Positions 13,203-62,121 of a DNA stretch of 64,000 nt are shown piece by piece. Source of the DNA: Escherichia phage LHE287; sequence record PP761450.1; one strand, written 5' to 3'. Position 1 is the first letter of the stretch; each line of letters begins with the position of its first letter. The notes beneath the pieces were generated by a model that was given only the letters and a program-made list of their open reading frames with translations, was not told the DNA's origin and did no database searches. Made by a program: the position numbers and the translations under genes.

Positions 13203-13231
13203 ATATTAGGCGATTATTTCTTGAAAGTAAA
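13203..13231 (-). promoter_or_regulatory. Early sigma70-like promoter (TTTACT-N17-TAATAT)
   Basis: -35 TTTACT and -10 TAATAT on the minus strand with a 17-bp spacer, just downstream of a terminator hairpin and upstream of the gene starting at 13159. Confidence 0.45.
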
Positions 13232-13246
13232 GTTATTGAAGTAAAA

Positions 13247-13267
13247 AGCCCAGTACTTGACTGGGCT
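13247..13267 (-). terminator. Intrinsic terminator
   Basis: AGCCCAG / CTGGGCT stem, then TTTTT on the minus strand. Confidence 0.5.
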
Positions 13268-13285
13268 TCTTGGTGTTCGATTGAC

Positions 13286-31944: not shown

Positions 31945-31973
31945 AGTATAAGCGCAGGGATTATAGAAGTAAA
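31945..31973 (-). promoter_or_regulatory. Early sigma70-like promoter (TTTACT-N17-TATACT)
   Basis: -35 TTTACT and -10 TATACT on the minus strand, 17-bp spacer, directly downstream of the nrdH-side terminator hairpin. Confidence 0.5.
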
Positions 31974-31991
31974 GCCCCTCAATGAGGGGCT
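31973..31991 (-). terminator. Intrinsic terminator hairpin after the glutaredoxin gene
   Basis: AGCCCCTC-AAT-GAGGGGCT perfect 8-bp stem followed by T-rich sequence on the minus strand. Confidence 0.5.
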
Positions 31992-44520: not shown

Positions 44521-44549
44521 AGTATAGGGAAGGATATTGAAGAAGTAAA
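44521..44549 (-). promoter_or_regulatory. Early sigma70-like promoter (TTTACT-N17-TATACT)
   Basis: -35 TTTACT, 17-bp spacer, -10 TATACT on the minus strand, right after a terminator hairpin. Confidence 0.5.
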
Positions 44550-44563
44550 GGGGCAAAAGCCCC
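44550..44563 (-). terminator. Intrinsic terminator
   Basis: GGGGC-AAAA-GCCCC stem-loop with T-run on the minus strand. Confidence 0.45.
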
Positions 44564-44578
44564 TTTTATTGAATTATT

Positions 44579-58734: not shown

Positions 58735-58793
58735 GATATAGTCTCTTGGTTTCAAATAGACGGGGTAATCATACCCCGCCCAAAGTTATAGAA

Positions 58794-59033
58794 TTAACTG
58801 ATGTGCTTCAGAAGAGCGAAGAGGATCGCGGCCTTGGCCTTTACCTTTCCTACGATGCCTGTTTCGACATCAACTTCTTCAGCAACCCACTCTTTTCCCT
58901 TCTTGCTGATGATAACGTCACGACGCTGTGCGTAGACTTCTTTGGTCGCATACACACGGCGGAACCCTTTAGCGCGGAGCAATCCCCAATTGCGATCAAT
59001 TTCTACTGAGGTTTCTACCATTTTGTTCTTCAT
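58794..59033 (-). CDS. Hypothetical small early protein
   Basis: 79-aa ORF downstream of copy 1 of the duplicated promoter cassette. Confidence 0.5.
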   Translation of the reverse strand: MKNKMVETSVEIDRNWGLLRAKGFRRVYATKEVYAQRRDVIISKKGKEWVAEEVDVETGIVGKVKAKAAILFALLKHIS

Positions 59034-59083
59034 GATATAATCTTACCTTTCAACCCGGTGAACCCATCGTTCGCCAGTTATTG

Positions 59084-59137
59084 AATAATACGCATTTACC
59101 TTATAGAAGTAAACCCCTAAAAGTAAAAATCCCCAAC
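59084..59137. repeat. Copy 1 of a 54-bp direct repeat (early promoter plus start of terminator hairpin)
   Basis: Identical 54-mer aataatacgcatttaccttatagaagtaaacccctaaaagtaaaaatccccaac also at 59440-59493. Confidence 0.85.
59085..59113 (-). promoter_or_regulatory. Early sigma70-like promoter (TTTACT-N17-TATTAT), copy 1
   Basis: -35 TTTACT, 17-bp spacer, -10 TATTAT on the minus strand. Confidence 0.5.
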
Positions 59138-59148
59138 AAACGTTGGGG
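59131..59148 (-). terminator. Intrinsic terminator (copy 1)
   Basis: CCCCAAC / GTTGGGG stem followed by ATTTTTAC on the minus strand. Confidence 0.5.
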
Positions 59149-59166
59149 ATTTAATAAAAGTTATGC

Positions 59167-59391
59167 CTATTTAATTTCTCGGCTTGAATTTTCTAGTTCT
59201 AATTTTCTTATAGCGGAAATTCTGCCTTCATCAGTTGCGGGAAACTCCCAAACAGCACGACGCCCATTGTTGGTATCACAACTTGCCAGCCAGCAGAAAT
59301 TAGAGGGGTCCTTAAACAAGACCAACTTCGGATTTCCTAAATTGATGAGGTTAAACGGGGTGAGGTCAACAACACATGATATAGCAGACAT
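59167..59391 (-). CDS. Hypothetical small protein bracketed by duplicated promoter-terminator cassettes
   Basis: 74-aa ORF with ATG start and GAAGG RBS, promoter copy 2 upstream, terminator copy 1 downstream. Confidence 0.5.
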   Translation of the reverse strand: MSAISCVVDLTPFNLINLGNPKLVLFKDPSNFCWLASCDTNNGRRAVWEFPATDEGRISAIRKLELENSSREIK

Positions 59392-59439
59392 AACATATAC
59401 CTTCTTTCAATGAACGGGAACGCCCCGATCTATGAATTC

Positions 59440-59493
59440 AATAATACGCATTTACCTTATAGAAGTAAACCCCTAAAAGTAAAAATCCCCAAC
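59440..59493. repeat. Copy 2 of the 54-bp direct repeat
   Basis: Identical to 59084-59137. Confidence 0.85.
59441..59469 (-). promoter_or_regulatory. Early sigma70-like promoter, copy 2
   Basis: Same -35/-10 elements as copy 1. Confidence 0.5.
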
Positions 59494-59504
59494 GTTTGTT
59501 GGGG
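59487..59504 (-). terminator. Intrinsic terminator (copy 2) after the ACP-like gene
   Basis: CCCCAAC-GTTT-GTTGGGG hairpin then T-run on the minus strand. Confidence 0.5.
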
Positions 59505-59511
59505 ACTTCTG

Positions 59512-59835
59512 TTATTTGCGCAGGGCAACCACGAGTTCAGCGAGTTCACCCATGGTCGGGTCGTCGCCTTTACTACCTAGCCACCCGTCGTCGATTTCGA
59601 CCTGAAACTCTTCTTCGAGGTCCATTACAATTTCGATAGCGTCCAGTTCATCACCGCCGAGGTCTTTCTTGGTACGGAGGCCAGCCAGCTTGTCCAGGGC
59701 GTCCTCGTTCTGAGATGCCACGTCGTCCAGCAATTTGCGCTTGTCATCGTCACGCCACAGATCCATATTCAGATTGTCAGTGGCGTACTGAGCCAGATGA
59801 CGCATGACTTCAACATATGTTGGCTTACTGCTCAT
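59512..59835 (-). CDS. Acyl-carrier-protein-like protein lacking the phosphopantetheine-attachment serine
   Basis: DLGGDELDAIEIVMDLEEEFQVEIDD aligns to the ACP core [26 protein letters not shown] with Ser replaced by Glu; about 45-aa N-terminal extension. Confidence 0.6.
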   Translation of the reverse strand: MSSKPTYVEVMRHLAQYATDNLNMDLWRDDDKRKLLDDVASQNEDALDKLAGLRTKKDLGGDELDAIEIVMDLEEEFQVEIDDGWLGSKGDDPTMGELAELVVALRK

Positions 59836-59877: not shown

Positions 59878-62121
59878 TTAGATTTTGATTTCTTTCTCTG
59901 TCAGTTCGGCAGTGACCTTGTACTTCACGCCATCCACTTCAACTTCCATGGTGGACTCTTCCAGGTCGAGGTCGGTGAACCAGCCGTGGCCAGCAACGAT
60001 ACCATACACCACTTTAGACAGTGTCTTGTTCAGGGCACGGACTTCGGTGATGGCCGCCTTGGCAGCAGCGTCGATCCAGTTTTCGATCAGCTGTTTCTGT
60101 AAGGCTTCAGGCACGGCAGTGATCATAGGAGACTTCACGAATGCTTCGTACTCTTTCAGAGCATTGGCGATGAACAAGTCACCAGCATTGAGTTTCTTGT
60201 TCTCTGCGATCTTCTTCTGTACTGCCGCGATGCTCGGTAGTGAAGACGCCCCGGCGATCTTCACGTTCAGCTCACGGCTCATGTAGAAGTCGGTAGACTC
60301 TTTGGTCTCAGTCTTCGGTGAGAAGCCGTAATCGCGGATGCCGTAGGAGGACAGGAACTCGGCCGCCTCAGCGCCGTACTGTACTGCCAGGCCTTTGGCG
60401 TTACCCTTACCAACCAGGGCGTCTCGATAGAACTTCAGCACCTTCTGCTTGCCTTTCAGGGCTTCCAGACGGACATTATCCGCAAAGAACTGAGCAGCAC
60501 TGATGTTCTTGACCATGGCGCGGTTGACCAGCGGTACGCTTTCCAGGTTCAGGACAAACACTTCCGGGCCACCAAACACGTGGACGCCCATTTCGATCAG
60601 CTTCTGTACAACTTCGATATCAGCCTTGAACGGCAGAGTCTTCACGTTAATGATACCGTCTTTGACGATGGTGTAGTTGCGCCACTGGAAAGTATCCAGT
60701 TCTTCAGGCAGGCCAAACTTCTTCTGTGCGAATTCAGGCACAGCCACAGTACCGTGTTGAATTGTACGCACACTGATGTTCGGGCGCTCGGAGTTATAGA
60801 CCAAATCACTGATTGGCACAACACCCAGATCGTTGGTAGGTTCGAACGTCGGGTTCCACTCTTCGTGTTCTGCCAGCTTGAGAGCCAGGGCTTTACGCTC
60901 TTCTTTGGACTGAGCATTCGCGATCTGTTCTGCCAGCTTGTCTTCGGTGTCGTCGGTTTTCTGCACAGTACCGCGCCCGATACTCTTATAGGAGAACATC
61001 GGATGCTTGGTAGCAACAGGTACACCAGCTTCAGCCAGGTACGTCAGCACATCAACGACGGTGGTCGCATCTTCAGCCGGAACCAGGTCATAGTCAATAC
61101 CGTCAACGCCGCGCAGCTGGTCGTCAACAATCGCCTGAACCAGATCGTTCTTGATGTTGGAGTAGTCCTGCTTGGTGAAGCAGTTGCTGTACTGTTTGAT
61201 GAAGCGAACGTCGCCCGTCTTCTTCAGCGCAGCCCAAACCAGATCTGCGTCCATAGTGTGTACACCGTAGAACGCCAGCACGTATGCCGCCTGGATGTCC
61301 GTCAGGCTATCCATCTGGTCGATCATGTTAGGGTTTACAACCCACAGCTTGGTGACGCTCTCAGGGATGCTCACATAGCCGACCGGGTGAGAGTCATCGT
61401 CCTGCACCGCCAGTACTGTTGCCACACCGTTTTCGACGTAGATGGCATGGGTGTAGATGACTGGGACATCAACTTTCACCTTCGGCACTGATGACTTCAG
61501 CACGTTTTCCAGTTCGGTCTGGTATTCGGTCTGACCTTCGGCAAACACATGAGTCGCGCCAGAGCGCTCGGACATCAGAGCCAGCAGTTCGCGGTTACAG
61601 TGCCAGCCGTATTCGATGAAAGTAATGTTATCGAACGCAGAAGGCAAGGTTTCGGCGACGGCCAGGATTTCGTTTGAGCGCCAGCAGTTGTCATAACCAT
61701 CGGTCATGAATGCCAGGTTGTTGACGTAACCAGGTTTCTTCAGGTCACGCGCAGTATCCATCGCCAGTTTCAACGGCTCAACGAAGCCAGTACATCCGGA
61801 CGGTTGCAGGAAGCGATCGATCAGTTTGTTCAGCTCGCTCAGGTCAGACGCAGCACTAACCTGGCGGCCAGCGAACACAGTACCAAAGTCGCCTTTGGAG
61901 GAGAAATACAGAACGCTCACAGTGTCTTCCGGTTTCACCAGGGAAGGCAGGTTCTCCTTCAGATGCTTACGGACTTCAGGGAGCGCACGGTACATAGAGC
62001 CGGAAATGTCTACAACGATTACATGGTTGGACGGGGTAGCAGTCGCAACCGCATTCTTAAATTCTAATGATTCAATCATTGTTCTCTTCGCCTTGTGCGT
62101 AAGGGTTAAGTTCAGACTCAT
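59878..62121 (-). CDS. von Willebrand factor A (vWA/MIDAS) domain protein, large
   Basis: N-terminal HVIVVDISGSM (DxSxS MIDAS motif); about 600 aa of C-terminal sequence without recognisable motifs; the true start may be the internal ATG at 62079 (better RBS). Confidence 0.7.
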   Translation of the reverse strand: MSLNLTLTHKAKRTMIESLEFKNAVATATPSNHVIVVDISGSMYRALPEVRKHLKENLPSLVKPEDTVSVLYFSSKGDFGTVFAGRQVSAASDLSELNKLIDRFLQPSGCTGFVEPLKLAMDTARDLKKPGYVNNLAFMTDGYDNCWRSNEILAVAETLPSAFDNITFIEYGWHCNRELLALMSERSGATHVFAEGQTEYQTELENVLKSSVPKVKVDVPVIYTHAIYVENGVATVLAVQDDDSHPVGYVSIPESVTKLWVVNPNMIDQMDSLTDIQAAYVLAFYGVHTMDADLVWAALKKTGDVRFIKQYSNCFTKQDYSNIKNDLVQAIVDDQLRGVDGIDYDLVPAEDATTVVDVLTYLAEAGVPVATKHPMFSYKSIGRGTVQKTDDTEDKLAEQIANAQSKEERKALALKLAEHEEWNPTFEPTNDLGVVPISDLVYNSERPNISVRTIQHGTVAVPEFAQKKFGLPEELDTFQWRNYTIVKDGIINVKTLPFKADIEVVQKLIEMGVHVFGGPEVFVLNLESVPLVNRAMVKNISAAQFFADNVRLEALKGKQKVLKFYRDALVGKGNAKGLAVQYGAEAAEFLSSYGIRDYGFSPKTETKESTDFYMSRELNVKIAGASSLPSIAAVQKKIAENKKLNAGDLFIANALKEYEAFVKSPMITAVPEALQKQLIENWIDAAAKAAITEVRALNKTLSKVVYGIVAGHGWFTDLDLEESTMEVEVDGVKYKVTAELTEKEIKI

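Follow-up and report, generated by a model that had tools for sequence, protein, structure and literature searches.

A duplicated terminator-promoter-like cassette around a small accessory gene in an Ackermannviridae phage

The locus and its repeated cassette

In a 64-kb stretch of the genome of Escherichia phage LHE287 (PP761450.1; the whole of this stretch is the DNA that we examined and is called the window below), a small gene for a protein of 74 aa, orf74, lies between two copies of a short direct repeat, each of which reads like a transcription terminator joined to a promoter. All genes around the repeat are on the minus strand. The gene of an ACP-like protein lies upstream of orf74 and the gene g79 downstream of it, and past g79 the next gene in order encodes a protein of 131 aa. 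The region has 96–98% nucleotide identity to the Agtrevirus-like coliphages vB_EcoM-ZQ1 (ZQ1 below), RPN242, AV101 and PC3 (Ackermannviridae, Aglimvirinae), and 88–91% identity to phages of the genera Kuttervirus, Limestonevirus and Agtrevirus. This identity places the window in the Ackermannviridae, and a T4-type phage was rejected as its source.

An earlier note on this DNA, made from the sequence alone, had described an identical 54-bp sequence in two copies, 356 bp apart, that flank the open reading frame of orf74, and both the repeat and its arrangement hold. The 54-mer, AATAATACGCATTTACCTTATAGAAGTAAACCCCTAAAAGTAAAAATCCCCAAC, is present exactly twice in the window. Allowing up to 3 mismatches adds no further match there, and 100 dinucleotide-preserving shuffles give none; a scan of the window that allowed up to 12 substitutions likewise found no extra copy. 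The real repeat (family D1) is longer, extending over 73 nucleotides (nt) with 92% identity between the copies and the same spacing of 356, and all six mismatches fall at its ends or within a hairpin loop of 4 nt. Across the 64 kb it is the sole convincing local direct repeat (at least 24 nt, within 3 kb).

Read on the gene strand, each copy consists of a stable hairpin, then a T-run (TTTTTACTTTTAGGGG), and then the promoter-like motif TTTACT-N17-TATTAT, which the note had also recognized and which is matched in both copies. Downstream of TATTAT there is a leader of 43–51 nt with a Shine-Dalgarno-like AAGAAGG or AAAGGTAAG, followed by ATG; the leader of orf74 is conserved in ZQ1, pertopsoe, KE31 and Det7. 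The stop codon of the ACP-like gene lies 3 nt before the upstream hairpin, which has a stability of −18.5 kcal/mol (z −6.0), and the downstream hairpin has one of −16.3 kcal/mol (z −5.6); UUUUUACUUUU follows. That each copy contains part of a terminator-type hairpin had been noted before, but only its first arm had been assigned to the repeat, whereas both copies hold the hairpin whole. One copy has the loop AAAC and the other its reverse complement, GTTT, so that the two hairpins also form inverted repeats with 96% identity (palindrome I1). From this arrangement we infer that each copy is a predicted intrinsic terminator fused to a sigma-70-type promoter. In the GenBank record of LIMEstone1, the homologous single-copy region is annotated as a putative early promoter (−35/−10) and a putative factor-independent terminator. 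A literature search found no transcriptome paper on the Ackermannviridae.

Table 1. Genes and sequence features at the locus, in the order of transcription
Feature	Position	Strand	Match or remark
vWA-domain gene	62121..59878	−	
ACP-like gene, 107 aa, upstream neighbor	59835..59512	−	phrog_4154 at 2.6e-57; Pfam PP-binding
Upstream 73-nt cassette copy; putative terminator of the ACP-like gene and promoter of orf74	59436..59508	−	exact 54-mer at 59440–59493
Upstream hairpin, stem CCCCAAC/GTTGGGG, loop AAAC (gene strand), then U-run UUUUUACUUUU	59483..59508	−	palindrome I1
Promoter-like TTTACT-N17-TATTAT with spacer allele A, TCTATAAGGTAAATGCG, upstream of orf74	59441..59469	−	
5' leader of orf74: small hairpin CGGGGCGTTCCCG, AAGAAGG 8 nt before ATG	59392..59440	−	read from the sequence
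orf74, 74 aa, between the repeats	59167..59391	−	phrog_22629 at 1.7e-44
Downstream 73-nt cassette copy; putative terminator of orf74 and promoter of g79	59080..59152	−	exact 54-mer at 59084–59137
Downstream hairpin, same stem, loop GTTT (gene strand), then U-run	59127..59152	−	terminator scan match, 11 pairs
Promoter-like TTTACT-N17-TATTAT with A-type spacer, upstream of g79	59085..59113	−	promoter scan
g79, 79 aa, downstream neighbor, conserved across the family	58794..59033	−	phrog_804
Single hairpin element in the adjacent slot (gene strand CTATAACTTTGGGCGGGGTATGATTACCCCGTCTATTTGAAA)	58756..58793	−	

The hairpin loops vary among genomes in a characteristic way. They are repeatedly flipped while the stems stay constant, reading AAAC/GTTT in the window (at 59494–59497 and 59138–59141, respectively), AAAC/AAAC in ZQ1, GTTT/AAAC in pertopsoe and GTTT/GTTT in Det7. 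These flips look like recurrent small inversions at palindromes.

Composites of a hairpin and a promoter, defined strictly, are enriched in the window over shuffles and are confined to three loci, namely the two at 59.1/59.5 kb and one at 13.2 kb; looser composites of a hairpin and a TTTACT promoter lie at 31.9 and 44.5 kb. On the gene strand (minus), hairpins joined to TTTACT-N17-TAnnnT occupy 13203–13268, 31945–31990 and 44521–44566, and the first of these also holds the doublet TTTTTACTT...TTTACTT that is seen in the cassette. The other composites share architecture and hexamers with the cassette, but none is a sequence repeat of it, and a dispersed family of such elements in the window was rejected. 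The search of the genome for further copies of the 54-mer that the earlier note had proposed thus found none away from this locus, neither in the window nor in 165 related records, and the repeat does not belong to a dispersed family.

The slot in related phages

A query spanning the locus from g79 to the ACP-like gene retrieved 271 records. Only 23 of these cover at least 80% of the query; most span about 666–690 bp, which corresponds to one cassette without orf74, and one cassette with no orf74 is the state of about 240 of the 271 related genomes. A blastn search with a 76-mer of the cassette against 50,697 phage records located it at 197 places in 165 records, with two real copies solely in carriers of orf74; the apparent third places in Det7-type records arise because the palindromic hairpin also matches its own opposite strand. 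In IMG/VR, an exact 28-mer scan found nine contigs, eight with one copy and one with two copies 356 bp apart. The arrangement with two copies, at a spacing of 353–356 bp, is present in at least 10 independently sequenced genomes in addition to this contig. Neither the window (searched with the 22-nt T-run/−35 core and the hairpin pattern), nor the phage records, nor IMG/VR yielded a cassette elsewhere than at this locus.

Where orf74 is absent, the remaining cassette is informative about how the two states differ. The nearest relatives of the window in the flanking genes, RPN242 and AV101, each have a single cassette, which agrees with the g79-proximal copy of the repeat on its promoter side and with the ACP-proximal copy in its hairpin flank. 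The cassette in these phages is chimeric, and the junction of the insertion or deletion therefore lies inside the repeat. A still cleaner pair is provided by the kuttervirus phages JN03 (occupied) and Cba120 (empty), which match at 388 of 388 nt upstream and at 473 of 479 nt downstream; between these flanks lies a clean indel of 355 bp, with its ends in the CCCCAAC hairpin arm. The Cba120 cassette joins the left flank of the upstream copy of JN03 to the loop and right flank of its downstream copy, and every empty allele that we read is, in the same way, an exact, scarless chimera of two copies. The comparison across relatives for which the note had called thus finds presence, absence and replacement of a gene between the ACP-like gene and g79, with the junction inside the repeat. 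Carriers and non-carriers are intermingled on the trees of both flanking genes, and the ACP and g79 trees are incongruent with each other, which argues for several independent events and for frequent crossovers between the two genes.

The two copies have also evolved in concert. The 17-nt spacer between the −35 and −10 elements occurs as allele A (TCTATAAGG(T/C)AAAT(G/A)CG), B (TCCTCTAAGGAATGTCC), B' (TCTTCTAA(A/C)GAATATCC) or C (CTAGAGAAAGGATACCC). Written as ACP-proximal/g79-proximal, the pairs are A/A in the window, KE31, JN03 and SJ3; A/B in ZQ1, SP-9-14, pertopsoe and CAU_YEP3; B'/B' in Det7; and C/B' in phage 241. Within a genome the sub-variants agree, with GGTAAAT in both copies of the window and GGCAAAT in both copies of JN03 and of SJ3. 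The close relatives RPN242, AV101 and ZQ1 hold allele B at the g79 promoter where the window has A; the perfect 54-mer of the window therefore exists because its g79 promoter was homogenized to the A allele. Among genomes with a single cassette, B is found in RPN242, AV101, P46FS4 and phiDP10.3, and A joined to the g79 leader is found in Cba120 and Maynard; these are the products that would be expected from deletion in ancestors of the A/B type and the A/A type, respectively. The constant spacing of 353–356 bp in all carriers argues for one origin of the duplication, followed by concerted evolution in both directions.

The gene itself is an old resident of this locus. By tblastn, orf74 is found in 31 phage records, all of Ackermannviridae and always directly downstream of the ACP-like gene, and the locus is the same in three lineages, Kuttervirus, Taipeivirus and the Agtrevirus-like phages. 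Its homologues form three clusters among 5.8 billion proteins. Against six orthologues its dN/dS is 0.07–0.16, and the gene is thus under purifying selection. In five of the six comparisons, including those across genera, its synonymous difference (pS) from the window tracks that of the flanking ACP and g79 genes: 0.17 against 0.13–0.14 for ZQ1, 0.33 against 0.25–0.40 for pertopsoe, 0.52 against 0.45–0.52 for Det7, 0.79 against 0.53–0.74 for phage 241, and 0.66 against 0.52–0.63 for Magnus. Because pS tracks the flanks, orf74 is either ancestral to the genera or has always been transferred together with them. The suggestion that it had been recently acquired is therefore rejected: the gene holds the same position in all three lineages, it is constrained, and its synonymous divergence is that of its surroundings.

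The exception is KE31, with a pS of 0.06 for orf74 against 0.36 for g79 (this comparison rests on a nucleotide alignment, and the synonymous value of the KE31 ACP gene was left out). Compared site by site, the window has a ZQ1-like backbone with KE31-like patches at 59656–59584, 59356–59309 and 59215–59057, the last of which ends just beyond the downstream cassette. The orf74 copy of the window thus underwent recent, patchy exchange with a KE31-like Kuttervirus. The GC content of orf74 is 41.8%, against 49.4% for the window, and falls within the lowest 5% of 225-nt windows, which is a weak hint of an ultimately foreign origin.

With regard to function, orf74 has no Pfam match, and its PHROG match (phrog_22629) is unannotated. 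A confident AF2 model (pLDDT 85) has four strands and a C-terminal helix, for which searches of the PDB and BFVD gave no significant structural neighbor except its own Magnus orthologue; weak matches (E about 1) to PUR/Whirly-type repeats of four strands plus a helix are a lead at most. In the Ackermannviridae of enterobacteria, orf74 is an accessory gene that can be dispensed with but is kept by selection.

Proposed mechanism and alternatives

We consider it likely, with a probability of roughly 0.8, that the cassette is a terminator-promoter direct repeat resembling the promoter-early stem-loop (PeSL) elements of T4-like phages, which would insulate orf74 and provide homology for gene conversion and for precise deletion, possibly also for re-insertion. 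The upstream copy would end the ACP transcript and start that of orf74, and the downstream copy would end the orf74 transcript and start that of g79, with the U-run doubling as the A/T-rich region upstream of the −35 element. With cassette copies on both sides, orf74 would thus be a self-contained transcription unit. Homologous recombination, carried out by phage or host machinery, between direct repeats of 45–73 nt that lie 356 bp apart would homogenize the copies by gene conversion. The same recombination could precisely delete one repeat unit together with orf74 and leave a single chimeric cassette, the state of most relatives. The gene could be restored by the same reaction in reverse or by a double crossover with a co-infecting phage that carries it, and orf74 would be repeatedly lost and occasionally exchanged at the slot. 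Loss is favored as the overall direction because a single intramolecular event suffices, because the gene is old at the locus, and because cassette and gene are never found elsewhere.

Several points weigh against this account. The promoter match scores 9 of 12 against the sigma-70 consensus, and the promoter scan overall gives no more promoter-like sites than shuffles do. Base-by-base reading covered 17 to 21 of the 271 loci, and structure alone cannot orient any single event as a deletion or an insertion. The left boundary of the exchange between the window and KE31 is inside the ACP-like gene, not in the cassette. Moreover, the slot can hold genes without the duplicated cassette. Vi01_121c (79 aa) and P46FS4_55/KE27 (55–57 aa) are located there fused to g79, with no second cassette; orf00139 of Ag3 (94 aa) sits between two different hairpin/promoter elements; and in the Taipeivirus phage Magnus, orf74 itself lies directly before g79, and both a second cassette and a terminator hairpin behind the ACP-like gene are lacking. 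Thus, the repeat is not required for gene turnover in the slot. Judged from these comparisons, the slot is a small hyperplastic spot, in which the duplicated cassette is specific to the orf74 state in Kuttervirus and Agtrevirus-like phages.

In Ag3, the promoter and leader before g79 (TTTACTTCTTCAATAA...GGGGCGGGAATAGTTCCCGCC...TTTGAAAG; locus L011, 541–636) are closer to the promoter and leader of Magnus orf74 (locus L007, 1911–2003) than to the leader that g79 usually has. A different deletion is thereby hinted at in Ag3, one that removed orf74 and retained its leader.

The turnover of other cargo without flanking repeats could also be taken to mean that the duplication is purely a regulatory by-product and no substrate for recombination, the cassette having been copied a single time, as orf74 turned into a transcription unit of its own, and the patchiness of orf74 arising only from crossovers in the ACP-like gene and g79 between carriers and non-carriers. 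The incongruent trees of these two genes, which indicate frequent recombination in the region anyway, and the exchange boundary inside the ACP-like gene fit such an origin. Nevertheless, it seems unlikely, because the empty alleles that were read are all exact, scarless chimeras of the two copies, because exactly one repeat period separates JN03 from Cba120, whose flanks are otherwise identical, and because homogenization within genomes has gone both ways (A/A and B'/B'), so that the copies demonstrably interact. At the other extreme, orf74 and one cassette might be actively mobile, like a PeSL mini-circle or an integron: they would leave as a circle and enter the single cassette that naive phages already hold, perhaps with the help of a recombinase directed by the hairpin, and the carriers would then be recent gains. 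The architecture does fit the PeSL model, in which mini-circles have been detected experimentally in RB49/phi1 (PMC2839356), and the low GC content of orf74, its copy in the window being much closer to that of KE31 than the flanks are, and the repeatedly inverted hairpin loops all point the same way. But cassette and orf74 never occur at another locus or beside other cargo, the synonymous divergence of orf74 tracks the flanks in five of six comparisons, PHROG and Pfam searches place no recombinase with the locus, and the constant spacing in all carriers argues for a single origin; we therefore hold mobility of this kind to be quite improbable.

A more specific form of the same idea strikes us as a long shot. 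Here, the cassette and orf74 would be an excising and integrating mini-circle, with the GGGG/CCCC hairpin as the specific target of recombination and the loop inversions as the footprint of cruciform or hairpin processing. If true, mobility of PeSL-type regulatory cassettes would be a general mechanism of gene shuffling in unrelated families of large lytic phages rather than a peculiarity of the T4 group. Finally, several database records begin or end exactly inside the cassette, as might be seen if the repeat were an artifact of assembly; this, like chance similarity, has a negligible probability, given that none of 100 shuffles produced such a match and that the same arrangement recurs in at least 10 independent genomes and an IMG/VR contig.

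Relation to known systems and the neighboring slot

Under the PeSL-like account that we favor, the closest parallels are in T4-like phages, where PeSL elements were described (Arbiol et al. 2010, PMC2839356; Comeau et al. 2014, PMC4122927). In RB49/phi1, lineage-specific genes (ORFans) flanked by PeSLs are excised as mini-circles, leaving one chimeric PeSL (PMC2839356; PMC4122927). The order of parts is the same in the cassette, from stem-loop through A/T-rich stretch, −35 element, N17 and −10 element to Shine-Dalgarno sequence and ATG; the stem is of the GGGG...CCCC type; and the promoter in both copies fits exactly the early-promoter consensus of T4/PST PeSLs, TTTACW-N17-TAYWAT (PMC4122927). 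A small gene lies between two copies, while a near-identical relative lacks the gene and keeps a single chimeric copy, which parallels ORF192 of RB49 as compared with phi1. The elements mark the limits of the indels, both when the window and ZQ1 are set against RPN242 and AV101 and when JN03 is set against Cba120. Recombination in T4-type phages needs less than 50 bp of homology (Singer et al. 1982, as cited in PMC2839356).

The differences are also plain. The host of the cassette belongs to the Ackermannviridae, not to the T4-like myoviruses; there are only one or two copies per genome, all at one locus, whereas PeSLs occur by the dozen, dispersed in hyperplastic regions, conserved over ~100 bp and able to recombine among themselves; and orf74 is old and conserved at its locus, unlike the lineage-specific ORFans that PeSLs carry. 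The analogy with T4-like PeSLs that the earlier note drew is correct, but the phage itself is not of the T4 type. By this analogy the cassette appears to work like a PeSL pair and would add to that class a member from a new host family, outside the PeSL sequence families of T4. A literature search found no paper linking PeSLs with the Ackermannviridae, and a review of that family makes no mention of promoters or terminators.

Two other comparisons are instructive. Morons, in the model of Juhala and Hendrix (also taken up in PMC2839356), are autonomously transcribed genes inserted in phage genomes, and gain or loss does not proceed through their regulatory sequences. Like a moron, orf74 has its own predicted promoter and terminator between conserved genes, a lower GC content and a patchy distribution. 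Unlike one, its flanking regulatory sequences are direct repeats with the indel junction inside them, and recent acquisition from outside is not indicated, as its homologues are confined to the Ackermannviridae and always at this locus. With deletion and concerted evolution at direct repeats in general, whether by homologous recombination or by replication slippage, the locus shares the loss of one repeat period, the chimeric junction and the gene conversion; there is no mechanistic difference, and this general process is the one that the cassette presumably undergoes.

The recombination hotspot at this locus is thus real but rather ordinary, its type being known before from T4-like phages; it does not overturn current understanding and, as a tidy natural example of a known process, would not surprise a phage genomicist. 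Its interest is that the PeSL concept, in which terminator-promoter modules serve as portable homology through which small accessory genes can drop out or in while their neighbors remain undisturbed, is carried over to the Ackermannviridae. These are a second family of large lytic phages and find wide use in biocontrol and engineering. The locus offers clean natural experiments, with JN03 and Cba120 one repeat unit apart and with spacer alleles that record gene conversion both ways, and the slot downstream of the ACP-like gene could serve engineering as a site where insertions are tolerated and self-insulated. In practice little follows from all this, apart from the point that the repeat appears to break some assemblies.

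The same principle is seen in the neighboring slot, beyond g79, where a hairpin element is duplicated around a gene in relatives and single in the window. This element, of ~35 nt (CTATAA-N6-GGCGGGGTATGATTACCCCG-yCy-ATTTGAAA), has two copies 559 bp apart in ZQ1, AV101 (1227–1278 and 1786–1844 of locus L004), KE31 and Det7. The gene between them encodes 169 aa and is annotated in some records as "RNA polymerase ADP-ribosylase." In the window (Table 1), RPN242, pertopsoe and phage 241, the element is single and the 169-aa gene is absent. The single copy of the window joins the upstream-type GTCT to the downstream-type ACCAAGAG, whereas RPN242 retains GCCC, which suggests different crossover points in the two phages. 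The loop of this element reads TATGATTA or TAATCATA and looks inverted in the same way as those of the cassette, the second copy of ZQ1 included.

Two observations concern the database records themselves. Those of SenASZ3 (MH709120), SeTs-2 (MN871504), SenALZ1 and selz begin or end exactly inside the cassette or at orf74, which suggests that the repeat interrupts short-read assemblies or sets an arbitrary start of the record. In the KE31 record (PP856729; locus L005, 1512–1982), an opposite-strand open reading frame of 471 nt is annotated where all relatives have the ACP-like gene; this is probably an error of gene calling or a disrupted ACP gene.

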